The translations under genes and the position numbers were made by a program. 64,000 bases of DNA from a virus (Duplodnaviria; Caudoviricetes), in the IMG/VR virus record IMGVR_UViG_3300012855_000001, positions 1,419 to 65,418 of that record; one strand, given 5' to 3'. Shown in pieces: positions 1 through 54,553 of this stretch. The notes below the pieces were generated by a model. The model ran no database searches and was not told the DNA's origin. It worked only from the letters and a program-made list of their open reading frames with translations. The first letter of the stretch is position 1. The number at the start of each line of letters is the position of its first letter.

Positions 1-2192
1 ATGACAGGGTGGATTTGCCCACTTACTTTGACAAAGACGATGGGCTGCCCACCTCAATAATTGGACGCTCGGCTCTGGGACATCTTACCCGGCACCCTAT
101 AACTGGCACCCCTACTGAGGGCCAGGTGCTAAAGGCTCAGAGCGGGGCTTTGGTTTGGGCAGATGACAACGATGGAGCGGGCCAGGTAAACGTTGACCTC
201 AACCTCCTCAGGGATACGTTGACACAAACCGGGCACGGGTATACACAAAGCCAGACTCCCCTGCCCTTTTTCGTTGACCAGTCAACGGGTGATTTGCTAC
301 CAGCCGTCAACGATTTTGACAGCACCACCCACGTTGGGTTTATCATTGAAGTGCTAAACACCAATGAGCTGGTGGTGGCGGCCGGAGGCGTACACTTTAA
401 GGCGGGCCACGGGTATGCAGTTGGAAAGGAATACTTTACAACTGGGACGGCTCACACCTATGCCACCCAGGCCCCGGCAAGTGAGATAAACGACTGGGTT
501 TGGAGCGTGTTGGATGCAGACCGTTTACTGCTCCATAATGTACGTCCATATAACCCATCCGCAGACAATGAAAACCCAGGCGGGCTTTGGTTTTGGGACG
601 GAGCTGTGGCTGAGTTTTTGCCAGCCTCTGACACGCTCGGTTTGTCGGGCAATGATGGCATTGAGCTGGAGGTTTTGAATGACTCCCTGGCAATAACTCT
701 GGACTTTACAAATCTGACAGCCACGGCTCCTGGCTCCAGTGACTTTTTGGTGTGGCAAGACCAGTCAACTGGGGTAATGTCAAAGGCTACAGTTTCCCAG
801 GTAACAGGGGGGCCGCAAACGCTCTCCATTGATCAAAGCACGGCTGTGTTGACAATAAGCGCAGGCAATAGCGTTGACTTATCTGAGGCTGTTGACGAGC
901 AAATAAACACGCTGTTGACGGCGGGGACAAATGTTACATTAAATTACAACGATGGAGCCAACACTCTCACTATAAGCAGCCCAGACGACCAGGCTCTCAG
1001 CCTAGTTGGCAACTCGCTCAGCCTCACAGACGGCGGCTCTGTTGACTTATCTGGATACCTGGACAACACAGACAGCCAAACGTTGACACTATCCAGCAAC
1101 ACCCTGAGCCTCACAAACGGTGGGAGTGTTGACCTGAGTGGCTATTTAGACAACACGGACAGCCAAACGTTGACACCTAACGCGGGCACAACATCCCTGA
1201 CCATTAGCGGGGGTAACTCAGTGAGCCTGGCAGAGCTGGTGGATGACAGAGTGGACGCTTTGCTGGTGGCCGGCACTGACATTGGCCTGTCTTACAACGA
1301 TGCGGGCAACACTCTCACTGTGAATTATACAGGCTCTAGTGGGGGAGACCCAGACCAGACGCTGAGCTTTAGCTCCCCAAACCTCACAATAAGTGGCACA
1401 GGGGGCAATACAGTAGATTTGAGCGCATTACAGGACGGCACTGGCACAGATGACCAAACGCTCACATTGAGTGGCAACACACTCAGCATAGAGAGTGGTA
1501 ACTCAGTGAGCCTGGCAGCGTATTTGGATAATACGGACAATCAAGACATAAGCCTGAGCACCAGTTTGTTTTTGTCGATCACAGGGGGCAGCGGTGAGGA
1601 CATAAGCGAGGATATAGAAGATCATTTGGGCCTGGACTTTTGGCAGGATGGCACCAACACAAATGTTGTGTACAACGATGGGGCGAACACTATCAGCATT
1701 GAGGTGACAGATGCCCCAGCTCATGCGTCTAGCCACATAACGGGTGGCTCTGACCAGGTAGACGGGGACAGGCTGGACATTGATTGGAACCCTAGCCATT
1801 ACACTCCAGCCACCACACCCTCTGAGGTCACCTCAAACGATAACCTGACAGCCCATTTGTATGGTATTGACCAGGAGCTGGAGGCCGTTGTGCCAGATAA
1901 TAACTCTAGCCAGTCCTCTGGCTCTATTGACTGGGGTAATGATTACCAAGGGTACCAGCCAATAAACATGACAGGTTTAAGCTCAATAACAATAAGTTTC
2001 TCAAATTCAGTGCCTGGGGGTGCTTACATTATCCGGTTTACCGGGGCAGACGATGGCGATACAGTTAACTGGCCCAGCTCTGTAAAGTACGAGAATGGCA
2101 CAGCAGTAGGCACTGACATTTTAAGCAGCGGCCGCAGGATGGTGCAATTGCTTTATGATGGAACTGATTATTTTGTACCAGGCGGCTATTAA
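1..2192 (+). CDS. Tail-fibre-like protein with about 29-aa TDxQTLSL...GGSVDLS repeats, probably 5'-truncated
   Basis: Frame is open from base 3 (track start is GTG at 9). Repeated DNTDSQTLTLSSNTLSLTNGGSVDLSGYL units, a HASSHITGGSD motif, and a C-terminal TVNWPSSVKY...YDGTDY domain typical of phage fibre tips. Confidence 0.75.
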   Translation, partial: DRVDLPTYFDKDDGLPTSIIGRSALGHLTRHPITGTPTEGQVLKAQSGALVWADDNDGAGQVNVDLNLLRDTLTQTGHGYTQSQTPLPFFVDQSTGDLLPAVNDFDSTTHVGFIIEVLNTNELVVAAGGVHFKAGHGYAVGKEYFTTGTAHTYATQAPASEINDWVWSVLDADRLLLHNVRPYNPSADNENPGGLWFWDGAVAEFLPASDTLGLSGNDGIELEVLNDSLAITLDFTNLTATAPGSSDFLVWQDQSTGVMSKATVSQVTGGPQTLSIDQSTAVLTISAGNSVDLSEAVDEQINTLLTAGTNVTLNYNDGANTLTISSPDDQALSLVGNSLSLTDGGSVDLSGYLDNTDSQTLTLSSNTLSLTNGGSVDLSGYLDNTDSQTLTPNAGTTSLTISGGNSVSLAELVDDRVDALLVAGTDIGLSYNDAGNTLTVNYTGSSGGDPDQTLSFSSPNLTISGTGGNTVDLSALQDGTGTDDQTLTLSGNTLSIESGNSVSLAAYLDNTDNQDISLSTSLFLSITGGSGEDISEDIEDHLGLDFWQDGTNTNVVYNDGANTISIEVTDAPAHASSHITGGSDQVDGDRLDIDWNPSHYTPATTPSEVTSNDNLTAHLYGIDQELEAVVPDNNSSQSSGSIDWGNDYQGYQPINMTGLSSITISFSNSVPGGAYIIRFTGADDGDTVNWPSSVKYENGTAVGTDILSSGRRMVQLLYDGTDYFVPGGY

Positions 2193-2204: not shown

Positions 2205-3059
2205 ATGAGATTGATTTTAGCTTTTGTTTTTACGCTTTTTGTGCTGCCACTATTTGGGCAATATTACGCGCACGTATACACTCCGGCCGGCAGTAGTTAT
2301 GACCCAGATTTTCAGGCTGTGCTCGATGAGGCAACTAACCTGGGGTATACTTTACCCTCTGCCTCCCAGCAGGATGCCATGAACCAGTTTGTTATTGATG
2401 CCAAAGCCTCAGGATACTGGTCTGACCTTGATTATTTTGCAGTCCACGCACATGACGCGGATATAAATTTTTGTAGGATTAACTGGGTAAACCCAACAGA
2501 CACAAAGGCCACATTTACAGGGGTTGACCATGTGGATGACCAGGGGTGTGACTGTAGTGCCACGTCTGGGCGCATGGACTCAAATTGGCGGTTTACAGAT
2601 GGGCCGAATAATGTAAATAGCGATGTAGCGGCAGGGGTGTGGGTTGACTGGATAAATAGCGGGAGTACAACTTATTATTATTTAGGGGATGGCAGCTCCA
2701 CTAGCACATCAAATTTTACCAGATTTAGAGGTGGCCAGTTTGGCGTGACTGTTGGGATTACGAACAATTACAATGCGTTTTTGAGTGCTGGGCAGCAAAG
2801 CGAGGGTTTGTTTTCTGCCTTTACCTCTGGTGGGGTAACTGGTGCTAAGAAAGATAACACGATTTTGTTTAGCACTTCATCTTATACCCTGCTGACTTAC
2901 AACACAAACGATGTGTTTTTTATGTCCAGTTTTGGAGTCTCGAATGGGTGCCAAGTGGGCAGGGTTTACCGCATGGTTTACGCGGGAGCTTTAGGCTCAT
3001 CTGAGATAGATGACCTTTACACTGATTTTGATAACTATTTGACAACTGTTGGAATATGA
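2205..3059 (+). CDS. Putative lectin-like virion/fibre-tip protein with Sec signal peptide
   Basis: MRLILAFVFTLFVLPLFG|Q signal, then YDPDFQAVLDEA...MNQFVIDAKASGYW, resembling a domain common in phage tail proteins; beta-rich remainder. Confidence 0.6.
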   Translation: MRLILAFVFTLFVLPLFGQYYAHVYTPAGSSYDPDFQAVLDEATNLGYTLPSASQQDAMNQFVIDAKASGYWSDLDYFAVHAHDADINFCRINWVNPTDTKATFTGVDHVDDQGCDCSATSGRMDSNWRFTDGPNNVNSDVAAGVWVDWINSGSTTYYYLGDGSSTSTSNFTRFRGGQFGVTVGITNNYNAFLSAGQQSEGLFSAFTSGGVTGAKKDNTILFSTSSYTLLTYNTNDVFFMSSFGVSNGCQVGRVYRMVYAGALGSSEIDDLYTDFDNYLTTVGI

Positions 3060-5614
3060 GAAAGCTTATTTTAACTGTCCTGACTTTATTGACTGCTGCT
3101 CTGTGTATGGGGCAATCTGATAAGATCATAAACCAGGGAGGGGGAGCCACTCAGGAGTTGAGTTATGACTCTGCAACTGGGCAGATGAGTATTACAGATG
3201 CCCAGGGGGCAACCATTACGTTGATGACAGGGGCCAGCTCTAGCAGCGATGGGCAGCGGGGCCTGGTGCCTCAGCCATTATCTGGAGAGGAGGGCCTTTT
3301 TTTACGTGGGGATGGAACATGGGCCAACCCTACTGTTGGCGGTGATAACTGGGGCAGCCAGGTGGCTCAAAGTTCTGGTTTTGTAGGTGGCAACGGCACA
3401 GCAGCAAACCGTCTCCGGCTTGTTCAAAACGGAGCTACAGACGGCCAGGTAATTGCCTGGGACAACGGGCTGGGGGAATGGGATGCCAGGGCGCAACTAG
3501 ACAGCCAATTGCTCAGCCTGTCAGCAAACACGCTGGAGCTGACAAACGGCGGCTCCGTAGACTTATCTGGGTACCTGGATAACACGGACACCCAGGATTT
3601 AAGCCTGGCAGCCAACGTGCTAAGCCTCACAGACGGCGGCTCTGTTGACTTATCTGGGTACCTTGACAACACGGACACCCAGGATTTAAGCCTGGCAGGT
3701 ACCACCCTAAGCCTGACAAACGGCGGCTCAGTTGATTTGAGCGCATTACAAGACGGTACGGGTACGGATGACCAGGAACTCACTTTAACTGGCAACACGC
3801 TCAGTATAGAGGGAGGGAATAGTGTAAGCCTGGCAGCGTATTTGGACAACACGGACACCCAGGATTTGAGCCTGGCAGGCAGTGTGCTCAGTTTGACAAA
3901 CGGCGGCTCTGTTGATTTGAGCAGCCTGGGTGGTGGAGACCCAGACCAAACGCTGAGCTTTTCGGGCACGACTTTAAGCATAAGCGGAGGCAATAGCGTG
4001 AATTTATCCAGTCTCCTGGACAATACAGACACCCAGGATTTGAGCCTGTCAGGCAGCGTGTTAAGCCTCACCAACGGTGGGAGTGTTGACCTCAGTAATG
4101 TTGATGACTCAGACATCCAATTTATTTCCATTAACACGTCCGGCTCTTTTTTGCAGTTTAGCCTCACAGACGCAAACACTAGCAGTTTAAATTTATTTAC
4201 AGATGTCACAATGGGCGGGGGAGGTTCACAGCTCAACCCTCTGTATGTGGATACCACGTATATTGCCACCCAGTACGACCTCACAAACGCCACAGCATCT
4301 GCTAGTAATGGTTTGAGCATAGACTCTGGGAGTGGAGATGTTGTACTGGGCGGCCCTATGACTCAAAAGGCTGTCATTGAGATGGAAAACCAGGCTATCG
4401 AGTTCAACGCGGACAATAACGGATTTACTGATTTTGACGCGGTAAGTGATAGTATTTTTATACGGTTTATTGATGGCCGTGGCGTGGTGTACGGATTTGG
4501 TGTCAGCGATGGGAACCAGCCAGGGTATTTGCTTATGGACAGGGTGTATGGCTCAGATTACACAAAACTGATTGCATACAATGAGTCTGACAAAATCAAT
4601 GTAGGGGATTTGTCTAAAGAGCTGGAGCTGGTTGGTTTTGAGTATTACCTCAATAGTGGCTTTAGTGTTGATACATTAGCCGCTGGGACTGTTGACTATT
4701 TACTGGGTTTCAATAGCTCCACCGGGCAATTTGGGCCCACCACTCAACTCACAACAAATGGCGGCGGCAGCAGTGGCGGCGGCGCATTTTCAACCACAAA
4801 CAATGTCACCAGTAATGCCCCAGGCGATTACGCAAATGATGACTTTGTGTTTGGCTCTCCTCAGCTCGATGGCAACGGCACGAACAATAGACGCATGTTT
4901 TTTGATGTCAGCAAAGGCTCACTGTATGCAAACGAGGCAACGGGGACAGAGTACGATGACACAAACAGAGGTTTTAACGTGTTCAACGCGTCCCGCAACA
5001 GTATTACATCCGGCTATGCCTCAGCGGCAATGGGTGGACAAAACAACACAGTGGTGGGGGCTGGTTCTGCTGCTGTGGCGTGTAGTGGCTGCGATTTGCC
5101 AATGAATTACTCAGTAGGCATGGGCATAGGCCCGAAAGTTTTAGAACCTCAGAGCTTTGTACACGGCAACGGCTCGTTTGACTCTGGAGAGGTAGGGCAA
5201 AGGCAGTACACGCGGCTGGTTCTTTATGGCGATGGCACAGGCACCTCTCAGTTTAATGTGTATGCCAGTAATGTAAACGCGGTAAACGTCCCCACAGATC
5301 ACATTTGGACTGGTACCTGGTATTGCAGTTTGCTGGTAACAACAGGCGGCGGCATAGTTGACCAGGGGGATTACAACCCCATATTTGGAGATTTTTACGC
5401 ATACAACCGGGGCGGCACCATGCAGGTACAGTACAGTGTTAGTGGAGCCTCTAACGTGTGGGATGACCCAGATATGAGCAACTCGGATGTTGAGTTAAAC
5501 GCTGACAATGTAAACAAAGCGGTACAGGTCAGAGTCCAGCCTAGCACAGACGGGGACTCTAATATGGAAACCAGGTGTGTGTGTGTTCTGGAGTTCGTAC
5601 AAACAGCATATTGA
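3056..5614 (+). CDS. Tail-fibre/adhesin-like repeat protein with Sec signal peptide
   Basis: MRKLILTVLTLLTAALCMG|Q signal; fibre motif GLVPQP...FLRGDGTW; about 7 TDxQDLSL repeats; SNAPGDYANDDFVFGS motif and short YadA-head-like repeats (SAAMGGQNNTVVGAGSAAV). Confidence 0.75.
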   Translation: MRKLILTVLTLLTAALCMGQSDKIINQGGGATQELSYDSATGQMSITDAQGATITLMTGASSSSDGQRGLVPQPLSGEEGLFLRGDGTWANPTVGGDNWGSQVAQSSGFVGGNGTAANRLRLVQNGATDGQVIAWDNGLGEWDARAQLDSQLLSLSANTLELTNGGSVDLSGYLDNTDTQDLSLAANVLSLTDGGSVDLSGYLDNTDTQDLSLAGTTLSLTNGGSVDLSALQDGTGTDDQELTLTGNTLSIEGGNSVSLAAYLDNTDTQDLSLAGSVLSLTNGGSVDLSSLGGGDPDQTLSFSGTTLSISGGNSVNLSSLLDNTDTQDLSLSGSVLSLTNGGSVDLSNVDDSDIQFISINTSGSFLQFSLTDANTSSLNLFTDVTMGGGGSQLNPLYVDTTYIATQYDLTNATASASNGLSIDSGSGDVVLGGPMTQKAVIEMENQAIEFNADNNGFTDFDAVSDSIFIRFIDGRGVVYGFGVSDGNQPGYLLMDRVYGSDYTKLIAYNESDKINVGDLSKELELVGFEYYLNSGFSVDTLAAGTVDYLLGFNSSTGQFGPTTQLTTNGGGSSGGGAFSTTNNVTSNAPGDYANDDFVFGSPQLDGNGTNNRRMFFDVSKGSLYANEATGTEYDDTNRGFNVFNASRNSITSGYASAAMGGQNNTVVGAGSAAVACSGCDLPMNYSVGMGIGPKVLEPQSFVHGNGSFDSGEVGQRQYTRLVLYGDGTGTSQFNVYASNVNAVNVPTDHIWTGTWYCSLLVTTGGGIVDQGDYNPIFGDFYAYNRGGTMQVQYSVSGASNVWDDPDMSNSDVELNADNVNKAVQVRVQPSTDGDSNMETRCVCVLEFVQTAY

Positions 5615-5672: not shown

Positions 5673-6104
5673 ATGGATGCGACAAACGCGGGCAAATTGC
5701 CCATTAAAGATTTTAAAGACGTGCTCGTGCTGGCTATTATGGCAGCCATGTACGCAGACAATGAGCTGGGCGATGGCCTGGATTTTCCTGAGGATATTAT
5801 CTCAGCCATCAAGCTGTACCGGCCGGCACTGGATGCCTGGGAGGGCAAAGAGAACATTATCCCCCAGTACCTGGACATGGATGAGGAGGAGCGGGAGGAA
5901 ATTGATGCAGTCATTGCCTCCCTCGACTTGCGAGACGATGCAAAGGAGCGCACCATTGAGGGTGTGGCGGGCCACGCAATCAGCATTACCCAGCACATCC
6001 AGGGGATTGTCTCACTGATCAAAGACAGCCAAAAAGAACCTGGCAAGGTCAAAGGCAGCCCAGTGCTGGCTGTGCGTCAACTGAAAGCGGCAAAGGTAGC
6101 CTAA
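5673..6104 (+). CDS. Hypothetical acidic helical phage protein
   Basis: 143-aa ORF with A/C-rich leader and a downstream terminator. Confidence 0.7.
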   Translation: MDATNAGKLPIKDFKDVLVLAIMAAMYADNELGDGLDFPEDIISAIKLYRPALDAWEGKENIIPQYLDMDEEEREEIDAVIASLDLRDDAKERTIEGVAGHAISITQHIQGIVSLIKDSQKEPGKVKGSPVLAVRQLKAAKVA

Positions 6105-6151
6105 AGACAAGTACCGCAGGTTGGGAACCTGCCCTTTCTAATCGGAGAGGT

Positions 6152-6190
6152 AAGCCTCCCCCCTAAAAAGTTAGGCTGGGAGGCTTTTTT
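6152..6190 (+). terminator. Intrinsic terminator
   Basis: AAGCCTCCC...GGGAGGCTT followed by a T tract. Confidence 0.8.
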
Positions 6191-6218
6191 ATACCAGGTG
6201 ATTTGCTTATATTGTGAT

Positions 6219-6280
6219 CAACATGAGATTATGATTTGTTACGCCAGAGGCTTTGGTTGATTCCAGAGCCTCTTTTTATT
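6219..6280 (+). ncRNA. Candidate small RNA A
   Basis: TATATTGT box at 6208-6215, then about 60 nt ending in hairpin AGAGGCTTTGG/CCAGAGCCTCT plus T tract; no credible ORF. Confidence 0.35.
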
Positions 6281-26070: not shown

Positions 26071-26635
26071 AAAGCAAAAGAGGTATACCAAAAAGCAGCT
26101 CATTGACATGGCTGTGGAGATCATAGGGAGCCAGGAGGGAGTGTATGACTTTTACACCCTGTCTGCTGCCCTACCCATCAACCTCAAACAGTTCTATGCA
26201 AAAAAGCTGGAACAGTCAGAGGAGATAAAGGAGGCTCTCAGGCACAACATGGAGGAGCTGGCCCTGGCAAAGATCGACAAACACAGTCTTTACTTTGTGG
26301 AGGATTTGACCACATATCTGCCCATCTCCAGGAGGACGTTTTACGACATGGGTTTGCATAGTGTGCACACAATAAGAGAGGCACTCCTGGCAAATAAGCT
26401 CCGAAAAAAGGCAAAGCTCAGGCGCAAGTGGGAGAGCAATGGCAATGCAACGACTGAGATAGTGCTGTATAAGCTCCTGGCTAATGAGGATGAGCTGGCC
26501 CGTCTAAATGGCACAGACCAGACACACACTGTAAAACTGGATGGTGCGTTTAAGGAGCTGGCCAAGTGGTCAGAGGTACCGCTGGCAGACCGCAAAAAGC
26601 TACTGGAGACCATTAAAAGCCTGGGCAGTGAATGA
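26060..26635 (+). CDS. terS: Terminase small subunit
   Basis: Helical HTH-like duplicated segments, directly upstream of and overlapping terL. Confidence 0.65.
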   Translation: MASKKQKRYTKKQLIDMAVEIIGSQEGVYDFYTLSAALPINLKQFYAKKLEQSEEIKEALRHNMEELALAKIDKHSLYFVEDLTTYLPISRRTFYDMGLHSVHTIREALLANKLRKKAKLRRKWESNGNATTEIVLYKLLANEDELARLNGTDQTHTVKLDGAFKELAKWSEVPLADRKKLLETIKSLGSE

Positions 26636-28074
26636 GCACAAACGATATAATAAAGCTCCAGGGCAGCGTCCTAAAAGATGACTACCTGGAGTTTTTTAAA
26701 TTCTTTTGGAAGTACACCAGCAATGACCCACTGATATACAACTGGCACCTGGGGTTTTTGGCGGCCGAATTGCAGGAGGTTGGTAGTTGGATAATCAACA
26801 GGCAGCCCAGACAGTATGACCTCCTAATAAATGTCCCTCCCGGCACGTCAAAATCCACCCTCACCTCTGTAATGTTCCACCCGTGGCTCTGGGCCAATAT
26901 GCCAGAGTGCAGGATAATAACAGGCTCCCATACTGGCAGCCTCATGGTCAGGAACAGCTCCAAATCCAAGGACATAATAAAGTCAGAGGAGTACAGGGCC
27001 ATGTTTGATTACATAGGCATACGCTCAGATTTTGACTCCAAATATTACTACAAAAACACAATGGGCGGGGAGCGTATAAACACCTCTGCCGGGGCCTCGA
27101 TCATTGGCTCACACGCTCACCTCATACTCATTGATGACCCCATAGACGCAAAGGGCAGCCGCTCAGAGGCCAAAGTGCTCCAGGCAAAAGACTGGGTGGA
27201 GAAAACCCTGCCTACCCGTAAAGTGGAAAAGGCAAATACTCCACTCATAATGATAATGCAGAGGCTCAGCGAGGATGACCCCAGCGGCGTGTGGCTGGAG
27301 GCAATGAAAAAGGAGGGCCGGCCAGTGCGGCACATCTGCCTCCCTGCCAGCGATGAGTACCCCATAAGCCCACCAGAGGCCCGGCAGTATTACCAGGGTG
27401 GCCTGCTAGACCCCAAACGTATGCCCCAGGCAGAGCTGGACAAACTCCTGGGCGTTCTGGGTTCTATCGAGTACGCGGGCCAGTTTGGGCAGTCCCCCAC
27501 CGCTGGTGGCGGTAATATCATTACTGAGTCAATGCTGCCAGTGCTCGACTGGAACAGGCTGCCAGAGGGTTTTAATGAGCTAAGCGTAAACTTTGTGGTG
27601 GACTCCAGTGACAAGACAGGCAAAGAGAATGACCCCACAGGCATACTGGCCTATGTGGCGTACAAAGGATATGTTTTCCTGGTGGATTACATCAAAGTAA
27701 AGCAGCGGTTTGCAAAGCGCATAGAGAGCCTCCAGGCTTTTGTCAGGAAGTATGGGCACCCAAACAGCCGCATATACATAGAGCCAAAAAGCTCAGGGGT
27801 GGCCATGTACCAATACCTCACAGACGTGGCAGGTATGCTGGCAGAGGAGTGGAAAATGGCAGAGGGTGACAAAGTGAGGAGGGCCAAAGCCATTACCCCA
27901 TTTATGGAACAGCACAGAGTCTGGCTCCTGAGAGGCTCCTGGAACCAGCGTTTTATATCTCAGTGTACGGGTTTTCCCAATATGGCCCATGATGAGGAGG
28001 TGGATTGCCTGGTAATGGCTGTGACAAATGCCCTGGTACGCGGGGAGGACTCGCATTACAATTTTTACGATTAA
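26632..28074 (+). CDS. terL: Terminase large subunit
   Basis: NVPPGTSKS Walker A, LILIDDP Walker B, nuclease VDSSD...NDPTG and HDEEVDC motifs. Confidence 0.92.
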   Translation: MSTNDIIKLQGSVLKDDYLEFFKFFWKYTSNDPLIYNWHLGFLAAELQEVGSWIINRQPRQYDLLINVPPGTSKSTLTSVMFHPWLWANMPECRIITGSHTGSLMVRNSSKSKDIIKSEEYRAMFDYIGIRSDFDSKYYYKNTMGGERINTSAGASIIGSHAHLILIDDPIDAKGSRSEAKVLQAKDWVEKTLPTRKVEKANTPLIMIMQRLSEDDPSGVWLEAMKKEGRPVRHICLPASDEYPISPPEARQYYQGGLLDPKRMPQAELDKLLGVLGSIEYAGQFGQSPTAGGGNIITESMLPVLDWNRLPEGFNELSVNFVVDSSDKTGKENDPTGILAYVAYKGYVFLVDYIKVKQRFAKRIESLQAFVRKYGHPNSRIYIEPKSSGVAMYQYLTDVAGMLAEEWKMAEGDKVRRAKAITPFMEQHRVWLLRGSWNQRFISQCTGFPNMAHDEEVDCLVMAVTNALVRGEDSHYNFYD

Positions 28075-39306: not shown

Positions 39307-39381
39307 ACTGGCAGGCTGCCACATCGTTTAAACCGCATTACTCCAGAGCGAGTGGTGCGGTTTTTTAATTATATTTGTGCT

Positions 39382-40077
39382 ATGAATTTACAAGACATCA
39401 ACAGCCCGCTGGCAGACATACTGGCCAGCTCTGTGGTTTTCCTGGACGCTGGGCACGGTGCAATACACCCAGAGACAGGAGAGAACCAGACACCCAGCAG
39501 AGAGTATAAATTTGACCCTGAGATATTTGAGGGCCACCGGGACGGGTATGTTTATGAGGGTGTGCTCAATAGAACCATTGCAGGGTACACCAAATATTTT
39601 CTCAACGAGTTTGGCATAAATGTAATTGAGGTGTATGACCCCTGGGAGGACACAGACCTCTCTGAGCGTGTGCGGCTAATAAACAGCTCTGTGCATCTTT
39701 ACAACACATGGCTGACAATCTCAGAGCACTGTAATGGCTCTCCTGGCCATAACGCTGACGGCTTTGAGGCATATACCAGCGTGGGGCAAACGTTGTCTGA
39801 CAGGTACGCTGAGCTTTTGTACAGGCAAATGAGCCAGTTTATGCCCTGGCTCCCTTTGCGTACAGACCACAGGGACGGTGACCAGGACAAAGAGGCCGGC
39901 TTTAAGATGGTACGGGAGACCATAGGGCCAGCCGTGTTGATCGAAAACAATTTTTATGACAGCCTCAAAGGTGCCACCCTATTGTTTACAGATAGCCACC
40001 TGAGAGTCTTGGGGTACCTGAAAGCACTGGCAGCGAGAGAGTTTTTTATTGAGCAGTATATTATTGGCAAAAAATAG
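39382..40077 (+). CDS. N-acetylmuramoyl-L-alanine amidase (Amidase_3) endolysin
   Basis: VFLDAGHG, YEGVLN, ISEHCN and PAVLIEN zinc/catalytic motifs. Confidence 0.9.
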   Translation: MNLQDINSPLADILASSVVFLDAGHGAIHPETGENQTPSREYKFDPEIFEGHRDGYVYEGVLNRTIAGYTKYFLNEFGINVIEVYDPWEDTDLSERVRLINSSVHLYNTWLTISEHCNGSPGHNADGFEAYTSVGQTLSDRYAELLYRQMSQFMPWLPLRTDHRDGDQDKEAGFKMVRETIGPAVLIENNFYDSLKGATLLFTDSHLRVLGYLKALAAREFFIEQYIIGKK

Positions 40078-43052: not shown

Positions 43053-44723
43053 ATGCAAAGGATTGGCAGTAAGCTGAGAGCAGGGCGGTACCACCGTCTG
43101 GCTGAGCAGTCAAAAAATGAGGGCTGGGACATAGTGCTAGACCCTATCAAAAACGTGCGACTCCTCAACCGAGTGGAAGCGCAAAACCGGGACAACTGGG
43201 GGTATGACTATATGCTCCAGGGGCTGGCTAAGCTGGGCGTAAAACGGCAGGTAAATGTCTGTGTGGGTGACACGGGGGCACTATCCAACAACGTGGGCCT
43301 GGCTAGGCTCAACCAGGAGCTGGCATACAACCACACAAATGAGGAGGGCCTCGTTGATCAGCACGACCATTTTAGTATGTGCGCGGGTATTATCCTGGGG
43401 CTGGTACCAGGTGTAAAGGTGGGACTGTTAAACCATGAGGTTTTTCCTGAGGACACCTTTATGGGCTTTGGGCGCAAACTCCTCACCTCCCGTGGCTCTG
43501 GCTCTTATGCCTGGATGGCTGAGTTTGCTTATAAGCTCATTGATGACAAGCAAAACCACCCGCTCCTCCGGGACAAACCCCTGGTGGTAAACCTGAGCCT
43601 GGGCGGCGGGGCTGACCATCAGCCAACAAAAGAGGCGTTTGACGCAATGAAAGCGGCGGGGATTTTTGTCGTTTGCGCGGCGGGCAATGATGGCCGCTCC
43701 ATCTCATTCCCTGGGCGTTTGACATCCGTACTGGCTGCCGGGGCGATTGACAGCCGGGAGCAGCGGGCAGGTTTTTCTGGCCGTGGCCCTGAGCTGGATA
43801 TGACTGGCCCAGGCGTGGACGTTATGACGCTGGGAGCCAGCCGCAACGAGTTTGTGGAGGGAGACGGTACCAGTTTTGGTGCTCCACACGTCACAGCTAT
43901 GGTTTGCGCTATGTTGGCAGCATACCCAGACATCCAGACCCCTGACCAGCTCCACGACCTGGTACGCTCTGGAACAATCACAAAAGACCTGGGCGGGGCT
44001 GGGTTCGATGAGCTTTATGGGTGGGGTGTGCCTTTGGCCTCAACTGCCCTGGATGAGGCACCAGGAGAGCCTGGAGATGACCCAGACGAGCCAGGGGATG
44101 ACCCAGACGAGCCTGGAGACGAGCCAGGTAACCCAGAGGAGCCAGAGGAGATTTTTAAAGAGCGGCAGCACCGTTTTGTTGTGGAAAAAGAGCTGACCTT
44201 TATCTGGCACCGGGTGAAAAGCTCAGGCATTGCGGCAAGCTTTACGGCACCCATTGAGTTTGAGCTGGACAATGAGGAGCACATGGAGCTGGCTGGCTTG
44301 TTGCTGGAGAGTAAGAACTGGCAAAAGGGACGTATACCAGCGTGTGAGATCGAGGCACTATCTGAGCGGCACGGCGAGGAGGTAGCGGCTGAGGCCCAGG
44401 CTTTTCTCCAGGACTATTTTGGCCGTGTTGGATTTGGTATGCCCACCCCTATGGATGTCAAATTTTTACTGGAGGTTGTGGCGTTCTTTGTGCGCATGAA
44501 AATGCGGAAAGACCAGCCGCTCCTGGCTAAAGAAATTGATTGGGATGAGTTCACTGTCTGGGGGCACACAGACCCACAGGCCCCGCTGCATGAGGCAGGG
44601 GTGTGGGACAGAGAGCTGCCAGGTGCCACAACGAGCACACACGGCTCACCCATGCCTCCTACTGGGTTTAACGCACTGGAGGAGGCCGCTGAGCGTTTGA
44701 AAAAGCAACTCAGGGGCTTATGA
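43053..44723 (+). CDS. Subtilisin-family (S8) serine protease with an acidic linker and C-terminal domain
   Basis: GDTG (Asp), DHFSMCAG (His), AAGN (oxyanion Asn) and GTSFGAPHV (Ser). Confidence 0.88.
   Translation: MQRIGSKLRAGRYHRLAEQSKNEGWDIVLDPIKNVRLLNRVEAQNRDNWGYDYMLQGLAKLGVKRQVNVCVGDTGALSNNVGLARLNQELAYNHTNEEGLVDQHDHFSMCAGIILGLVPGVKVGLLNHEVFPEDTFMGFGRKLLTSRGSGSYAWMAEFAYKLIDDKQNHPLLRDKPLVVNLSLGGGADHQPTKEAFDAMKAAGIFVVCAAGNDGRSISFPGRLTSVLAAGAIDSREQRAGFSGRGPELDMTGPGVDVMTLGASRNEFVEGDGTSFGAPHVTAMVCAMLAAYPDIQTPDQLHDLVRSGTITKDLGGAGFDELYGWGVPLASTALDEAPGEPGDDPDEPGDDPDEPGDEPGNPEEPEEIFKERQHRFVVEKELTFIWHRVKSSGIAASFTAPIEFELDNEEHMELAGLLLESKNWQKGRIPACEIEALSERHGEEVAAEAQAFLQDYFGRVGFGMPTPMDVKFLLEVVAFFVRMKMRKDQPLLAKEIDWDEFTVWGHTDPQAPLHEAGVWDRELPGATTSTHGSPMPPTGFNALEEAAERLKKQLRGL
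44059..44150 (+). repeat. Tandem (E/D)PG(D/E)DP coding repeats
   Basis: EAPGEPGDDPDEPGDDPDEPGDEPGNPEEPEE. Confidence 0.8.
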
Positions 44724-46583: not shown

Positions 46584-49500
46584 GTGCAGGTAATTGCGTA
46601 TGAGTTAAAAATTGACGGTGTAGATGTTGCAATACGCAACCAGAAACAGCTCAAAGAAGCGGTTAAGCTGCTTAACCGGGAGCTGCTGGAGGTTGAGGAT
46701 GCAAACAGGTACAAAGAGATACAGCGAGACCTGGGAGCCTTAAAAGGTATCCAGAAACAGGTACGCGATGAGACCCGTAAAAGCCAGCGGGCATTTTTGG
46801 AGTCTGCCGAAAAAGGGAGCGAAAGTTACCGGGAATTACAGTTTAGGCTCACCAGGCTCAAAAACGAGTACAAAGACCTGGGCCGGGAGGCTAGAGAGTC
46901 CGGCCGTGGATTAAACCTCCAGGGGCAAATTAGCTCCATAACTCAGGAACTCAAAACGATTGACAAAGGCTTTGGGGACAGTTTCAGGAATGTGGGTAAC
47001 TACAAATCCGCTGTGTCTGGGGCTTTTGGTGCTTTAAAGGGTGGGCTGGCTGCCGCTGGCATTGGCCTGGCACTCGATCAAATAAGCCAGGCTTTAATTT
47101 CATCCATCAAACTGTTTGCGGACTTTACCAACCAGGTGGCTATCCTCCAGGCTGTGAGTGGTGCCAGTGCGGATGAGGTGGCAAAACTTAGAGACCGGGC
47201 ACTGGAACTGGGCGAAACCACGCAGTTTACAGCCTCCCAGGTGGCGCAATTGCAGATAAATTTTGCACGGGTGGGATTTGATACCCAGGCAATTGACAAC
47301 GCAACGGAGAGCACCCTGGATTTGGCGCTGGCTACCGGGGAGGATTTGGCTGAAAGTGCTGACGTGGTGGCAGCCACCCTGGGCGGTTACCAGTTATCAG
47401 CCAGGGAGACAAAGCGCGTAAATGATGTCCTGGCTCAGAGTTTCAACTCCTCAGCCCTCCAGCTCGAAACGTTTAGGGAGTCAACAAAGAACGTGGCACC
47501 CGTAGCGGCCTCTGTTGGTATCCAGATAGAGGAGGCCACCGCGTCAATTGCAGCCCTGGCAGATGTAGGCATACGCGGCAGCCGCTCAGGCACAGCGTTG
47601 AGGCGAGTGTTTACAGACCTGGGCACAGAAAGCTCAAAATTGTCCCAGGAGGTGGGCTTTGTGGTTGAGTCATCCGAGGATTACGCACGGGCCCTGGATG
47701 TTTTGCAGGAAAAGCAAATAGGGGTATCTGAGGCAACGGAGCTGGTGGGCCGGGAGGCAGCAACCGCACTGACAGCCTTGGTGGCTCAGCGTGACAGCGT
47801 GGCAAGCCTCTCAGAGGCGTTTAACGAGGCCGGCGAGGTTGTTGATCAGTACGGCAACAAAGTGGGGGCAGCAGCAGCGGCTGCATCTATTGTGGAGGAC
47901 ACGCTCACTGGAGATATAAATAAATTCCGCTCTGCCCTGGAGGGTTTCCAGTTGTTCTTTGTAGACCTTTTTGACAATACAATCAGAGGGGTGGTACAGG
48001 GGGCCACATCTTTGTTTCAGCCGCTACAGTCCACCGTACAGTTTTTATTTGAGGCATTCCGGCCCTTAGTTGATGAGGTGGGGGCTTTAGTCTCCGAGTT
48101 GTTCAGGGGAACAGACCCAGCCAGGCGTTTTGGGCAGGTGCTGGATTTTATACGCAACACACTGGTGCTGGCTATCGGCATAATTACCCAAACTGTACGC
48201 GGCCTCAGGCTTTTTGTCCAGGTAGTAAAGGACACTATTGAGTCCAGCGCATTTTTGAGCGGCGTGGTGGATGGCCTGGCTAATACGTTCAATTTTTTGC
48301 GGGACACATTAGTGGAGATACCAAACGTTTTAAACGGTATCATTAACGCATACGGGGCCCTTCGTGACGCATTCCTGGGAGAGGGTAATTTTTCAGATGT
48401 TGGGGCAGCCTTTACCGAGGGGGCCGAGGCCTCCAGGCGTTATGCTGGAGAACTGGACAACCTCAAAGAGTCAGCAGAGGGAGCCAGCGGCGGTTTACAG
48501 CTCACTAAAGACCAGACCCAGCAGTTGAATGACCTTATACGGAGCCTGGGCAGAGACCTGGGGCTGAGCAGTAAATTATTGGCACAGATTGCAGACGATG
48601 CTGTGGCTAGTGCTGACTCTTTTGAGGACGCTGTTGAGCGTATCAACCAGGCGGCACTCCGGGCATTTGCAAATCAAAGCTCTGACAGCGGCTCAGCGGC
48701 CCCAGAGGGAGACAGCGGGGACACAACGGCTGAAAGGCTCCAGCTCCCGGCAGACGGCTCTGTGGAAGCTCTCAGGGGGCAATTGCAGGATTTAAAGCGG
48801 GAAGTTGAACGGCAGCCCTCTAATAATGCACTGAGGGCCACCTTTGATGAGATCATTGAGAAAGAGCAGGAGCTGCAAAAAGCAGAGGAGACCCTGGCAC
48901 GTCTTAGGATAGAGGCAGAGGGTGGCCGGGAGGCAATCACTGACCAGGCCACAAAGAGCCTGGAGGAGCTGGCAAACGAGGCCAGGAGAGCAGCAAATTT
49001 GCCAGAGGTAAACAACACCATTGGCCAGATAGACACTACGGTAAGCCAGGAGGGCCAGGAGCAGGCAGAGCTGGCAGCAATAGAGCGGCGGTCATTGCGG
49101 CAGATCGAGGCCCTACAGAGTGAAAACCTCGACTTTGAAAAGTACCAGGCCCGCAAAACGGAGATACTGGAGGAGGCAGAGCTGGAGCGGCTGAGGACTC
49201 AGTTAAAGTTTACGGAGGAGGGCAGCCAGGAGTACAGGAGGATAAAAAACCAAATGTATGAGGCAGAGCTGGAGGCAGGCAAAGAGGCAAAGCAGGGCCT
49301 CGTTGAGGTTGAGAATGACTTTTTAGCGCAAGTCAGGGACATTGGACTCAATGCTCTCCAGAGCGTTGTGGATGCCCAGTTTGAGCAGCGCACCCAGGCG
49401 GCAAAGGAGGCAGCAGATGAGAGGCTCAGAATTGCCGAGGAGGAGCGTGACGAGCGGCTGGAGGGAGTTGAGCGTGGCAGCCTGGAGGAGAAACGCATTG

Positions 49501-50189
49501 AGCAGGAGTTTGAGCGGGAGAAAATAGAGCTACAAAAGCAGGCGGCCAGAGAGCAGCAGCGGATTAAAATACAGCAGGCTATTGCCAACACGGCACTGGC
49601 CATAGGTAACGCACTGGCTACAGTCCAGCCTTTTGTGCCAAACGCTGTAGCGGCGGCTGCCCTTGCTGCTATCCGTGGAGCAGCCCAGGTGGCTGTCCTG
49701 CAATCTCAAAGCTTTGCGGCTGGAGGTGTGGTAGACGGGCCGAGCCACTCCCAGGGAGGTGTGCCCATGAGGGTGCGGTCTACCGGCCAGCGTGTGGAGC
49801 TGGAGGGCCAGGAGGGAGTGATCAATAAAAAGTCCATGCGCTCCACCCGTGTTGTGCATGTGTCTGGCACCCCTGCTGAGATAGCCAGCGCAATAAACAA
49901 AATGGACGGCAACGGGGTGCCGTTCCCTGGAGTCAGGGCCGTACCTTTGCGGTATAAATTCCAGGATGGTGGAATGATTCCGGGGGTGCCCGCAACGCTT
50001 GCCAGTTCCAGGGCCCAGGGTTCAATACGGGTAGAAACAGAGCTATCTGGAAACAGTATTGAGGCCATTGAGGCGGCTGTGCTCAGAGGCTCTGCTGTAG
50101 GTACCAAGACAGGAACAAAGGAGGGTACCGTTGAGGCCAATAAGCGCAGAGGGTTTGAGGATAAATTAAACAACAGAATTAACGTATAA
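46584..50189 (+). CDS. Tape measure protein
   Basis: 1201 aa; TP901-type core (LRDRALELGETTQFTASQVA...GIRGSRSGTALR), helical repeats, FAAGGVVDGPSH tail. GTG start. Confidence 0.93.
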   Translation: MQVIAYELKIDGVDVAIRNQKQLKEAVKLLNRELLEVEDANRYKEIQRDLGALKGIQKQVRDETRKSQRAFLESAEKGSESYRELQFRLTRLKNEYKDLGREARESGRGLNLQGQISSITQELKTIDKGFGDSFRNVGNYKSAVSGAFGALKGGLAAAGIGLALDQISQALISSIKLFADFTNQVAILQAVSGASADEVAKLRDRALELGETTQFTASQVAQLQINFARVGFDTQAIDNATESTLDLALATGEDLAESADVVAATLGGYQLSARETKRVNDVLAQSFNSSALQLETFRESTKNVAPVAASVGIQIEEATASIAALADVGIRGSRSGTALRRVFTDLGTESSKLSQEVGFVVESSEDYARALDVLQEKQIGVSEATELVGREAATALTALVAQRDSVASLSEAFNEAGEVVDQYGNKVGAAAAAASIVEDTLTGDINKFRSALEGFQLFFVDLFDNTIRGVVQGATSLFQPLQSTVQFLFEAFRPLVDEVGALVSELFRGTDPARRFGQVLDFIRNTLVLAIGIITQTVRGLRLFVQVVKDTIESSAFLSGVVDGLANTFNFLRDTLVEIPNVLNGIINAYGALRDAFLGEGNFSDVGAAFTEGAEASRRYAGELDNLKESAEGASGGLQLTKDQTQQLNDLIRSLGRDLGLSSKLLAQIADDAVASADSFEDAVERINQAALRAFANQSSDSGSAAPEGDSGDTTAERLQLPADGSVEALRGQLQDLKREVERQPSNNALRATFDEIIEKEQELQKAEETLARLRIEAEGGREAITDQATKSLEELANEARRAANLPEVNNTIGQIDTTVSQEGQEQAELAAIERRSLRQIEALQSENLDFEKYQARKTEILEEAELERLRTQLKFTEEGSQEYRRIKNQMYEAELEAGKEAKQGLVEVENDFLAQVRDIGLNALQSVVDAQFEQRTQAAKEAADERLRIAEEERDERLEGVERGSLEEKRIEQEFEREKIELQKQAAREQQRIKIQQAIANTALAIGNALATVQPFVPNAVAAAALAAIRGAAQVAVLQSQSFAAGGVVDGPSHSQGGVPMRVRSTGQRVELEGQEGVINKKSMRSTRVVHVSGTPAEIASAINKMDGNGVPFPGVRAVPLRYKFQDGGMIPGVPATLASSRAQGSIRVETELSGNSIEAIEAAVLRGSAVGTKTGTKEGTVEANKRRGFEDKLNNRINV

Positions 50190-50192
50190 GCC

Positions 50193-51368
50193 ATGCCAGT
50201 AATTTTAAGCACAGAGCCACCAGCGGTGGTGACTAGGCTGCCAGAAGTAAAGTTCGCATTGAGGCTGACCTCTGCCGGGGTGTACCCATTCCGGCGGTGG
50301 ATGTTTTACCAGCTCCAGGTGGATGGTCAGGGCATACAGAACAACGTAAACCTGGCAAATCCCGTGGGTGTAGATGTGCCTATTGACGCGGCTGAGCTGT
50401 TAAAACCATTTGTGTCCATCCCTTATCCTGGCCTTTCATCGAGTACAGAGCAGAGCATACTGTCCAGCACGGCTGAGGTGCAACTGGTTTATGGAGAATT
50501 TGAGTACAACGTGGATACGCAACAGACCACAGTGGTGAGCAGCTCCTCCTCCAGCACTATTAAAGTAATTGACGCGGCCTCCCAGTTTGTTGATTACCAA
50601 TTTGACCCGAACACACCCAGCCAGGTGCTAATGTCCCGAAAGCCTCAGCGCATAAGTATGTCAAACGATGCCCACGACTGGTTTTATGTGCTGGTGTCAA
50701 ATAACCAGGCAGCCATTGTGTCTGTGCGTTTGTTCGATAAAGCAGGCACTCAGATAGGGGGCCAGTCCGTGGTTTTGTCTCCAGGTTATGCTGGGTATGT
50801 CCCCGTGGGTGGTGCAAACATGCTATCCAGTGTAGCCGGGAGCAGCAGCCCTGCCACTTGGGGGTATGCCACCGTGGCGATTACTGGCATAGTTGGCTGG
50901 CAAACGACTGAGTATAGAATAAGTTACGACCGTGACCCATGTGAGAAAGAGGTGGCCGAGGTTCACTTTAAAGAGCCAGTTGGAGGTTGGAGCGGTATGG
51001 ACTTCGACACTATACGGAAAAACAGGGTGCGCACGTCTACTGTTTCAGAGGGGCGGTACCAGTGGGGTACCACTCCAGCGGACAACCTCTCTCTGGACTC
51101 AGGCGGCCGGCGCATTGCAAGCCTCCAGGCGGCCGAGGAGGTCACCCTCACCAGGGAGTTTGACAGGAGAGAGGCCTATGATTACAGGGACTATTTGGGC
51201 AGCATGGTCTCCTCTGAGCGTGTGGGCGTTAAAATGGTGCTACCTAATGGAGAGCAGGCATTTGTACCGGGTATCATTACCAATGACAACCTGGACACGT
51301 ATGTGCCAGACAGTAAATTTGAGTTCTCTATTACTATTCGATTATTCAAGGATTTTATAAGCGCATAG
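50193..51368 (+). CDS. Minor tail / distal tail protein
   Basis: Directly after the TMP; beta-rich. Confidence 0.55.
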   Translation: MPVILSTEPPAVVTRLPEVKFALRLTSAGVYPFRRWMFYQLQVDGQGIQNNVNLANPVGVDVPIDAAELLKPFVSIPYPGLSSSTEQSILSSTAEVQLVYGEFEYNVDTQQTTVVSSSSSSTIKVIDAASQFVDYQFDPNTPSQVLMSRKPQRISMSNDAHDWFYVLVSNNQAAIVSVRLFDKAGTQIGGQSVVLSPGYAGYVPVGGANMLSSVAGSSSPATWGYATVAITGIVGWQTTEYRISYDRDPCEKEVAEVHFKEPVGGWSGMDFDTIRKNRVRTSTVSEGRYQWGTTPADNLSLDSGGRRIASLQAAEEVTLTREFDRREAYDYRDYLGSMVSSERVGVKMVLPNGEQAFVPGIITNDNLDTYVPDSKFEFSITIRLFKDFISA

Positions 51369-51370
51369 GA

Positions 51371-53569
51371 ATGGACAAAATACTCATTGTTGACCCACCA
51401 CCAGGCACACCTCCAGAGTTTTTGGAGGACGGGGAGCTATTCCTGGAGCTGTCCCCCAGTTTCTCGTTTGAGCTGACAGAAAACGCGGCAGAGCTTAACG
51501 ATGTCAACAAGCTCAAAGGCAGCGGCGTGTTGGGTTTTTCTGTCCAGACCACCACAAAGAACCTGTTTATATTTGAGCGTTTTATCCACCCTCAAAGCAG
51601 GGACAACACGGCTGAGCCATATGAGGTGGTTTGCATAGGTAATGGCTTTAAAGTGCTACCTCAGAACAGGCTATATTTTAGGGGGTACCAAGACGCTGGC
51701 CCGGGGAGTTTTGGCTCTATAGATTTGGAAGTGATTGAGGAGGATGAGTTTTGGATAAAGAAAGCACAGGAGCTGTTTTTAAATGAGATTGACCTGGGAG
51801 AGTTTGAGATCACACGGGAGGGCATTATTGCTGACTGGCAAAATAACGATGGCTTATACTCAACAGCTCAGGGGAATACCAGCCTTTGGACTCCAGTAGA
51901 TTATGGGGTTTTTCAGCGTCCACAGGATGATTTTTATGGGGTTTTGATCGAGGATTTAAGGCCCCTAGTTTCTTTGTCTGCTGTGCTCCAGCAGGGTTTT
52001 AAGCAGATAGGGTATAAACTGCAAAGCCCATTACTCGCAAATGATGAGTGGTTTAATCGTCTTTGGTGCTATCTGCTGGGCACGGAGTTTGTCTATGATG
52101 GGCAGGGAGCTGGCTGGACGGCAGAGGCAGAGATCACTGGTACACCCAAATTTTTTGCACCTGCTCAGGGAGGTGCCCAGAGCAACCCTTTGTTTTTTGA
52201 CTCGATCACAAACGACCCGTCCGGCGGCCTTAATGAGGTAGAAATTGGAACACCTCCAAATATCGGGCTGACGTTTGACACGACCACGTTTAGCTATTTG
52301 CGGCCAGGCAATTCAGACTACCGGGTAACTTTTGATTTTAAAGTAAGGGGAACCAGCACGGCCAATTTTTCCATTGCCTTTGATGCTGCCCTTTATTCGT
52401 ATCCAGCACAGGAGCGGCTGGATGTTAAACCAGACCTGGTAATTGAGCCAGGAGAGGAGCCAGAGTTTACCGTGGAGTTTGAGTTTAACATTGAGTTTGG
52501 GCAGCGGGTGTATTTAGCCCTAGAGGCATTGCACCCTATTGACCAGAGTGCCATCTTTATCACATTCGTTGAGGTTCTCCCAGGCTCCACTGTCACATTT
52601 ACACCCATAGGGAACCAGTTTTATGAGGGAGACCTGGTACCAGTTGGCCAACTTTTAAACCCTGAGTACACCCTCATGGACTTGATCAAAGGCACCCTCC
52701 ACCTGGTCAAGGGTTATATTTATGAGGAGGCCCCCAGAGATTTGTGGATATACCCCAGGGAGGAGACCCTCATTTATGATGAGGTTGTGGAGGGCTACTT
52801 TAGGGGTATGGACAACGTGGTGGATTTGACTCAATACACAAACCGGGGCACGGAGGAGGTGGCGTTTCAGGACACAGACTCAGCCAGGTATATACGTATT
52901 CGATTTGCAAAAAGCTCAGATGGGTTTATTGAAAAAAACGGACTAGAAAACGATGGGCCATTGTTCTCTCACCTGGAGGACTTAGAGCGGGGTGACATCA
53001 AAGAGACCGTGGAGTATGAAAACCCATTTTTTGAGCCAACGGCAAACACTCAGTTTTACAATAAGGAAGTGCCGGCCATGTGGGACTCAAAGGAGCCAGT
53101 TTCCCCTGCCGTGGAAATAGCACCCAGGATTTTGTATTGTGAGGGGTATAAATTTTTGCGCACAAACCTGGGCCCCATTACGGCTGAGGAGCTGTCCGGG
53201 TGGGTGTTTGAAAACACAGAGCTGACCAGGATTATATACATAGGGCAGACTTTGAAAAACTTTAGAGTTCAAACACAGACTGGCTTTGCAGTACAGGTAG
53301 AAAAGTGCATAGCATACGGAGACCCAACCCTCAGGGATTTGTACGACCAGTTTTGGAAATATTTTGCTACCTCGATAAAGTACAACCGCACGTTTGCGTA
53401 TGAGGCAGAGCTGCCATTTGACGTTTACGATAACCTGGATTTTCGCTCCAGGGTTTTGGTGTACTACCGGGGGCGCATGACAGTTGGAGAGCTACTCTCA
53501 AAAGAGGGGTATGAGATAGGCGGCTCTCAAAAAGTCAAATTATTGATCAAACCTAATGCAGCGTTTTAA
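51371..53569 (+). CDS. Minor tail / baseplate hub protein
   Basis: 732 aa, second gene after the TMP. Confidence 0.55.
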   Translation: MDKILIVDPPPGTPPEFLEDGELFLELSPSFSFELTENAAELNDVNKLKGSGVLGFSVQTTTKNLFIFERFIHPQSRDNTAEPYEVVCIGNGFKVLPQNRLYFRGYQDAGPGSFGSIDLEVIEEDEFWIKKAQELFLNEIDLGEFEITREGIIADWQNNDGLYSTAQGNTSLWTPVDYGVFQRPQDDFYGVLIEDLRPLVSLSAVLQQGFKQIGYKLQSPLLANDEWFNRLWCYLLGTEFVYDGQGAGWTAEAEITGTPKFFAPAQGGAQSNPLFFDSITNDPSGGLNEVEIGTPPNIGLTFDTTTFSYLRPGNSDYRVTFDFKVRGTSTANFSIAFDAALYSYPAQERLDVKPDLVIEPGEEPEFTVEFEFNIEFGQRVYLALEALHPIDQSAIFITFVEVLPGSTVTFTPIGNQFYEGDLVPVGQLLNPEYTLMDLIKGTLHLVKGYIYEEAPRDLWIYPREETLIYDEVVEGYFRGMDNVVDLTQYTNRGTEEVAFQDTDSARYIRIRFAKSSDGFIEKNGLENDGPLFSHLEDLERGDIKETVEYENPFFEPTANTQFYNKEVPAMWDSKEPVSPAVEIAPRILYCEGYKFLRTNLGPITAEELSGWVFENTELTRIIYIGQTLKNFRVQTQTGFAVQVEKCIAYGDPTLRDLYDQFWKYFATSIKYNRTFAYEAELPFDVYDNLDFRSRVLVYYRGRMTVGELLSKEGYEIGGSQKVKLLIKPNAAF

Positions 53570-54410: not shown

Positions 54411-54553
54411 CTTTAATGTTTTCACCATAGTATTTTTTTGAGCCATTCCAAACGGAGTGGCTTTTTTTTGTGTCATGCTGAGCCAGAGTCATTGCTCTCC
54501 AGCTCTATGTAAAACAGGTGTAAAAACACTATAATTGCACAAAAGCAATTGTA

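Follow-up and report, generated by a model that had tools for sequence, protein, structure and literature searches.

We analysed a stretch of 64,000 nucleotides (nt) of viral DNA (bases 1419-65418 of the 65,418-nt IMG/VR record IMGVR_UViG_3300012855_000001), hereafter called the window, in which every gene lies on the plus strand. Four fibre-like proteins encoded there, named A, B, C and D, begin with leaders that we read, from their sequence features, as those of genuine Sec/signal peptidase I substrates following the Q-rule of Bacteroidota, that is with glutamine (Gln) at position +1. It is very probable that A-D are exported by the Sec pathway, cleaved before Gln and have the periplasm as their end point. 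The four genes, one of which runs across the ends of the record, are the following:

2205-3059, plus strand: A, 284 amino acids (aa); signal peptide residues 1-18 (2205-2258), MRLILAFVFTLFVLPLFG, with Gln19 as +1
3056-5614, plus strand: B, 852 aa; signal peptide residues 1-19 (3056-3112), MRKLILTVLTLLTAALCMG, with Gln20 as +1
61126-62127, plus strand: C, 333 aa; signal peptide residues 1-18 (61126-61179), MRFIFTLCFVLGMSSLYA, with Gln19 as +1
62972-64000, plus strand: D, N-terminal part; signal peptide residues 1-20 (62972-63031), MTHRVILILLFFLGAYCAGA, with Gln21 as +1
3-2192, plus strand: D, C-terminal part; same repeat-rich open reading frame (ORF), open at its 5' end and extending 1418 nt upstream of the window; no cysteine

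An initial annotation of this DNA had claimed signal peptides with Gln at +1 for the genes starting at 2205, 3056, 61126 and 62972, and all four N-termini match this description. Each leader carries an Arg or Lys at position 2-4 and a hydrophobic core of 15 (A), 13 (B), 11 (C) or 12 (D) residues, which is the length of a signal peptide and not that of a transmembrane anchor. The residue at -1 is Gly in A and B and Ala in C and D, while at -3 there are Leu (A and C), Cys (B) and Ala (D); the -1/-3 rule was judged by eye, with no weight matrix. Gln is found at +1 in 4/4 leaders, which is not due to chance; in fact, the combination of signal peptide and Gln is confined to A-D among about 80 plus-strand genes, a few small proteins of the window carrying membrane anchors only, and by our own arithmetic the chance of finding four such leaders in one 8-gene block is about 1 in 10^4. 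No lipobox of the form [LVI][ASTVI][GAS]C is present at the end of the core in any of A-D, the AALC of B having Leu at -1. The Q-rule is specific to Bacteroidota (PMC5837995) and stabilises extracytoplasmic proteins (PMC10653852); in this phylum, Gln at +1 matters only for cleavage by signal peptidase I (PMC5837995, PMC10653852). The assignment to this rule, already proposed in the initial annotation, is supported by the sequence features, by the conservation of the leaders and by the promoter evidence.

The start codons of A-D are the first ATG, GTG or TTG of each ORF, so that the hydrophobic segment cannot be buried by an upstream start. The genes are tightly packed: the ATG of B overlaps the stop of A, A begins 13 nt past the stop of D, and D begins 9 nt past the preceding ORF. 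In-frame ATG codons shortly before the predicted cleavage site occur in B (codon 18) and C (codon 13) and not in A or D. A conserved internal start giving leader-less isoforms was considered and rejected because no such ATG is present in A, in D or in most of the relatives' listed N-termini.

A survey of homologues shows how far these leaders are conserved. Four related genomes carry the same block of genes after the same leader-less protein of about 240-260 aa, and the capsid protein is 46% identical to that of the relatives where measured. Across the five genomes, 18/19 block proteins have a signal peptide and Gln (our own count from the listed N-termini), the residue at -1 in the relatives being always Ala, Gly or Ser; a leader ending in FSACRS before Gln in the relative G001 is also readable as a type I site. 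The sole exception is an extra gene of another relative, L016, which has a lipobox (..FLVSC). This gene (16892-17521 of L016) follows the fibre genes and encodes a lipoprotein signal, MKKISSFLLLFGLLFLVSC before Ser; its position recalls that of the receptor-blocking lipoproteins found beside the fibre genes of some phages. In the C family, a complete leader with Gln is present in 8/10 sequences although the leader sequences have diverged; the database entry of the ninth is truncated, but the complete ORF, found in L017, has a leader, and the tenth, from the closest strain, has a short called N-terminus. As the leader persists while its sequence drifts, it appears to be under selection.

The families of A and B extend beyond these phages. 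The A family is a large one, with 7257 representatives at E <= 0.001, and predominantly viral; a leader is missing from most members, including a 263-aa protein of the cultured Flavobacterium phage elemoF, and signal peptide and Gln are present in about 10 of the best 149 representatives. The close relatives of B on phage-sized contigs all have signal peptide and Gln; moreover, a module of about 100 aa in B (residues 572-676) is 40-55% identical to leader-bearing chromosomal proteins of Flavobacteriia and to leader-less, fibre-like metagenomic proteins of unclear context. In the Cellulophaga siphovirus phi18:1, the tail proteins are leader-less. As some relatives bear a leader and others do not, the leader is seen to be an add-on which some lineages of Bacteroidota phages put on ordinary fibre modules.

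Regarding the fate of the exported proteins, the T9SS (type IX secretion system) models TIGR04183 and TIGR04131 gave no NCBIfam or Pfam match at E <= 0.1 in A, B, C or either part of D, although a divergent domain could escape such a search; the earlier statement that no obvious C-terminal domain of this kind is present therefore stands at this threshold. As no such domain was detected, the periplasm is the likely end point of export.

The fibre-like nature attributed to the four proteins was borne out by attachment-type repeats in C, a lectin fold in A and a fibre motif in B, while Pfam, NCBIfam and PHROGs returned no informative family for A-D, and A-D were the sole genes of the genome that could be recognised as fibre-like. 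After its leader, C consists of a Cys-rich N-domain, two beta-sandwich repeats of about 75 aa (residues 168-246 and 249-320) and a C-terminal GFLGLFxN. In an AlphaFold2 model of C (pLDDT 72), the repeats match CBA120 TSP4 (Z 8.4, root mean square deviation 1.4 A over 62 residues), a KP1 baseplate protein (Z 8.8), T4 gp10 and the N-termini of podovirus fibres, and Foldseek gives probability 1.00 against many viral fibre proteins; these Z values are moderate, Z of about 8 being only moderately above background, and the sequence identity is 13-16%. In this model the two repeats have the small beta-sandwich fold of tailspike and fibre attachment domains, and C looks like an attachment adaptor. The extreme C-terminus of C, D(V/L)GFLGLF(K/Q)N, is conserved in 9/10 members and is modelled as disordered (pLDDT < 50); this peptide may serve in docking or sorting.

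Two features of C bear on its folding outside the cytoplasm. The mature proteins contain 4 (A), 5 (B), 8 (C) and 0 (D) cysteines, and C32, C44 and C47 are shared by all ten C-family sequences, C118 by nearly all. An approximately 5-fold excess of the O-glycosylation sequon D[ST][AILVMT] is seen in 10/10 C-family members, a sequence pattern that supports periplasmic exposure of C only. A general enrichment of this sequon in the fibres was rejected, since it is limited to the C family and some distant relatives of B, and conserved disulfide cysteines in B were likewise rejected. The oxidative folding put forward in the initial annotation is consequently retained for C, with its conserved cysteines, and not for B, whose cysteines are unconserved, nor for D, which has none.

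D had been taken as ending at the edge of the window; it actually continues and ends at window position 2192. Both ends of the record fall within one repeat-rich ORF, and a 1491-aa relative in L015 aligns with the N-terminal part of D (58% identity) and with its C-terminal part (53% over 948 aa), which indicates that D is one fibre of at least about 1545 aa. Its leader is followed by a conserved N-domain of about 70 aa (P33, R36, R41, G49, D59-G60, W62, N76-T79) and then by repeats of about 29 aa that run off the record. The number of these repeats is uncertain: every public assembly is interrupted at 63327, the point at which the repeats of D start and the depth is 2-3 times higher, and these assemblies are likely to come from the source samples and not to be independent. 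An Atlas search with D gave only weak leads to Bacteroidota proteins (scores of at most 0.86). The record has been assigned as linear with 70% completeness, and the relative G001 is complete at 64,413 nt with terminal repeats. It is probable that essentially the whole genome is present and that it is circular or terminally redundant, the break being caused by the repeats of D.

The mature part of A is predicted to begin with a helical stalk and to continue as a ConA-like lectin jelly-roll (AlphaFold2 pLDDT 78.5, pTM 0.79), with Foldseek matches to the lectin domain of a trypanosome sialidase (E 9e-8), to domain 4 of AbnA (TMt 0.59) and to the tailspike of the cyanopodophage Pan3; the model thus shows a ConA-like lectin/LamG jelly-roll fold, and carbohydrate binding is putative. 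In B, residues 48-91 match phrog_4302 (E 6.9e-6), and the protein contains the fibre motif GLVP..FLRGDGTWANP, repeats of about 29 aa (the gene has an 87-nt tandem repeat), the module mentioned above and a C-terminal domain. Judging from their sequences, B and D look like long repeat fibres.

C, D, A and B are found in this order in a single block, with which the capsid late operon appears to end. The initial annotation had placed them in a fibre module; the block follows the capsid genes and does not adjoin the tape measure and tail-tip genes (46584-53569). The features around the block are the following:

60240-61016, plus strand: leader-less conserved protein, 258 aa, directly upstream of the block; same position in 5/5 genomes
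62133-62963, plus strand: two leader-less ORFs, 127 and 148 aa, between C and D
5673-6104, plus strand: last gene of the late operon, 143 aa, leader-less; homologue after the fibre block in G001
54440-54463, plus strand: strong terminator-like hairpin then T run, at the start of the capsid-to-fibre transcription unit
6246-6273, plus strand: strong terminator-like hairpin, closing the late unit after the fibre block

A pattern scan found no comparable strong plus-strand terminator between 54440-54463 and 6116-6273, hence none between the capsid genes and the block. The fibre block therefore appears to form the distal end of the capsid late unit and to be transcribed late with the capsid genes, a reading of the transcription unit that rests on pattern scans. 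The 258-aa protein has no family match in Pfam or PHROGs and is a possible cytoplasmic docking partner. The 127-aa and 148-aa ORFs have no homologue in the four related genomes, where D follows C directly or nearly so, and look like an insertion into the block.

The best reading of the source is a long-tailed phage infecting a freshwater Bacteroidota host. The window encodes a tape measure protein of 1201 aa (46584-50189), a ClpP-type head protease (54554-55645) and a terminase large subunit (26632-28074) whose closest cultured relatives are those of Flavobacteriia siphoviruses, namely Croceibacter P2559Y (38%) and Cellulophaga phi12:1 and phi18:1 (36%). There are 11 copies of the Bacteroidota promoter pattern TTTG-N18-21-TAnnTTTG where 1.07 would be expected, and the DNA of the record is present in several pond metagenomes. 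The promoters, the terminases of Flavobacteriia phages and the phylum-specific Q-rule together point to a Bacteroidota host. GenBank phages searched by tblastn with C, B and the capsid protein gave no match, nor did DNA megablast give any, and the C family is absent from the representative bacterial genomes searched; no prophage, host or cultured relative was identified in these searches. The genome also contains a leader-less endolysin-like amidase (39352-40077) and a leader-less tail-tip protein of 732 aa, and a PDB sequence search with B, D or this tail-tip protein gave no match.

Several known systems resemble parts of this arrangement. One is the Cellulophaga phage phi18:3 (NC_021794), whose gp085, gp086 and gp087 begin with MKNKITIIMILMSISFGYS, MKKTIYILSILLLTISGVSA and MKHTFSIVLFFILSIGLNA, each followed by Gln (..FGYS, ..GVSA and ..GLNA before the cut). 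Like A-D, they are large late proteins of a Bacteroidota phage with a signal peptide and Gln, and their annotation as virion or tail proteins is stated in the record to be 'based on experimental MS/MS proteomics analysis' (MS/MS, tandem mass spectrometry); unlike the phage described here, phi18:3 is short-tailed and belongs to the Pachyviridae. The record says nothing of leaders, and the particle may contain either the mature or the precursor form. By analogy, phi18:3 shows that leader-bearing proteins of such a kind may be recovered with purified particles.

Among cellular proteins, those annotated in Flavobacteriia (Kordia, Aquimarina, Lacinutrix, Winogradskyella) as 'tail fiber domain-containing', 'C1q-like' or 'beta strand repeat' resemble B in having a leader with Gln and long repeats. 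They differ in being cellular genes on megabase contigs, in having their own N-domain after the leader (QSFNYQAV..) and in carrying at their C-termini PF00386, PF00229 or PF13884, which we take to be C1q, TNF and S74 chaperone domains and for which B has no Pfam match. The branched-tailspike and podovirus attachment domains (CBA120 TSP4 7rfo/7rfv, T4 gp10, the T7 gp17 N-terminus) share with C a small beta-sandwich fold, but the proteins that carry them are leader-less and assembled in the cytoplasm. T5 Llp, lambda Lom and Bor, and Cor are exported proteins encoded in or near the fibre region that block receptors or alter the envelope; unlike A-D, they are small lipoproteins or outer-membrane proteins, neither fibre-like nor parts of the virion.

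In the literature we did not find leader-bearing tail fibres described, and two papers come nearest. The mosaic adhesive trimer (MAT) fibres of Bdellovibrio (Caulton et al. 2024, PMC10769870) are phage-fibre-like proteins that, as A-D, have signal peptides, and they act outside the cytoplasm; unlike A-D, they are encoded on the chromosome of a predatory bacterium, which displays them on its surface. MAT fibres are defined by a conserved beta-rich N-domain of about 130 aa and often (in one subfamily) have S74, a domain for which Pfam gave no match in A-D. Phages of Porphyromonas gingivalis encode proteins with a predicted signal peptidase I site directly ahead of Gln (Matrishin et al. 2023, PMC10367356); in contrast to A-D, these genes belong to temperate phages, have no assigned function and are read as modifiers of the host envelope, and no fibre or tail part is named among them.

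The explanation we favour, tentatively and a little short of an even prospect for the whole chain, is that C, D, A and B form a host-recognition apparatus, with C as adaptor, D as giant repeat fibre, A as lectin-like protein and B as second fibre, which is exported and docks on fibre-less particles at lysis. A-D would be made late, as precursors with Sec signals, from the transcription unit of the capsid proteins. On established Sec and Q-rule biology, SecYEG would carry the precursors over the inner membrane, signal peptidase I would cut immediately before Gln, and a host glutaminyl cyclase would turn the +1 Gln into pyroglutamate. A-D would then fold in the periplasm, where C may also acquire disulfides and O-glycans. 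Meanwhile the cytoplasm would presumably build fibre-less particles, on which the fibre set could dock once lysis by holin and endolysin merges the compartments; before lysis, the periplasmic pool may mask receptors, and one pool could serve both virion and envelope roles. Docking is favoured by the virion-type folds, the late operon and the phi18:3 data, and by the fact that no further fibre gene could be recognised. We regard as rather more doubtful the extended form of this model, a two-compartment assembly in which the branched set C, D, A, B is Sec-exported, matured in the periplasm (pyroglutamate; disulfides and O-glycans on C) and added only while holin lesions join the compartments, with the same route in other Bacteroidota phages, e.g. 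phi18:3.

Several observations weigh against docking on the virion, or against the export that precedes it. The genes for the tape measure and the tail tip are separate from the block, and the leader-less 732-aa tail-tip protein could be the sole receptor binder. The fibres of related cultured siphoviruses such as phi18:1 manage without leaders, so that export is not required for such fibres. As for the phi18:3 proteins, they have no sequence similarity to A-D, and MS/MS of purified particles may pick up abundant contaminants. The marks of periplasmic residence are uneven: cysteine conservation is limited to C, B being unconserved and D without cysteine, and the O-glycosylation sequon is not enriched in A, B, D or cytoplasmic controls. 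Finally, in the closest strain (a 28,972-nt JGI contig, 96% identical) the called C protein, P0005, starts MHPAKSNAQVDTT.. (MHPAKSNAQ..), with no hydrophobic core. This could be an artefact of gene calling, a frameshift or a real loss; A and B on the same contig retain their leaders, and a metagenome scan for the C gene of this strain gave no match.

The initial annotation had left two fates open, joining virions at lysis or display on the infected cell as adhesins or decoys; the sequence cannot decide between them, and we lean to parts of the virion on the folds of C and A, the placement in the capsid late operon and the leader-bearing proteins detected by MS/MS in phi18:3. A serious competitor, which we nonetheless consider doubtful, is that A-D are exported and are not virion parts, acting within the infected cell's envelope, at its surface or, once freed by lysis, as soluble factors, for example in receptor masking, superinfection exclusion, keeping progeny off debris or as adhesins, while the leader-less tail-tip protein adsorbs. 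Export is the only step with direct sequence support, and the separation of the block from the tail genes agrees with such roles, as do the B module shared with chromosomal leader-bearing proteins of Flavobacteriia, the existence of leader-bearing cellular adhesins of fibre type such as the MAT fibres (PMC10769870), the exported Q-rule proteins of unclear role in Porphyromonas phages (PMC10367356) and the lipoprotein gene added at the end of the block in one relative. However, four large proteins, one of at least 1545 aa and one adaptor-like, would be a heavy cost for exclusion, the known exclusion proteins being small; no T9SS domain or alternative route to the surface was detected; the folds are those of virion attachment and receptor binding; no further gene of fibre type was recognised in the genome; and the analogous phi18:3 proteins were detected in purified virions.

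It is improbable that A-D exist in two pools, an exported and cleaved precursor and a cytoplasmic pool, arising from internal starts or late saturation of Sec, that builds the virion. The in-frame ATG codons of B and C, just ahead of the predicted cleavage sites, would suit this arrangement, but their absence from A, D and most relatives does not, and Met is common in hydrophobic cores anyway. Less probable still is that the N-terminus is no export signal at all and represents an uncleaved anchor, an assembly helix or a neutral relic of captured host adhesin genes. The residue at -3, which is Leu or Cys in 3/4 leaders and so less typical than Ala, speaks for this possibility; on the other hand, a membrane anchor would require a core of more than the 11-15 residues present, the basic residue, core, small -1 residue and Gln at +1 are kept in 18/19 proteins despite drift, where a relic would decay, and Gln at +1 is meaningful only for cleavage by signal peptidase I (PMC5837995).

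Other features of the window concern its general organisation. The terminase large subunit (26632-28074) is located about 15 kb upstream of the tail genes and distant from the capsid genes, so that the morphogenesis genes are divided into at least three separate blocks. Directly upstream of the tail genes, a 556-aa subtilase without leader is encoded at 43053-44723 (Pfam Peptidase_S8, E 3.5e-29), which is unusual at such a position in the structural region of a siphovirus. Between tail and head genes, a 130-aa protein (54018-54410) has an N-terminal membrane anchor or leader (MKTRHIALIVSIALAAGLFGAW..); its gene has its own Bacteroidota-type promoter (53931-53962) and the strong terminator at 54440-54463, and L016 has a similar small gene at the matching position.

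Tailed-phage particles are taken to assemble entirely in the cytoplasm. If the favoured explanation is true, a Sec-routed set of fibres would add a periplasmic arm to the assembly pathway of tailed phages and would explain how fibres could gain extracytoplasmic modifications of host type. The receptor-binding proteins of such phages would escape annotation pipelines and host-range predictors that drop any protein with a leader as non-structural, and recombinant fibres produced in the cytoplasm might misfold. If A-D are instead not parts of the virion, they would constitute an unusually large exported toolkit remodelling the envelope of the infected cell, which would likewise be undescribed.

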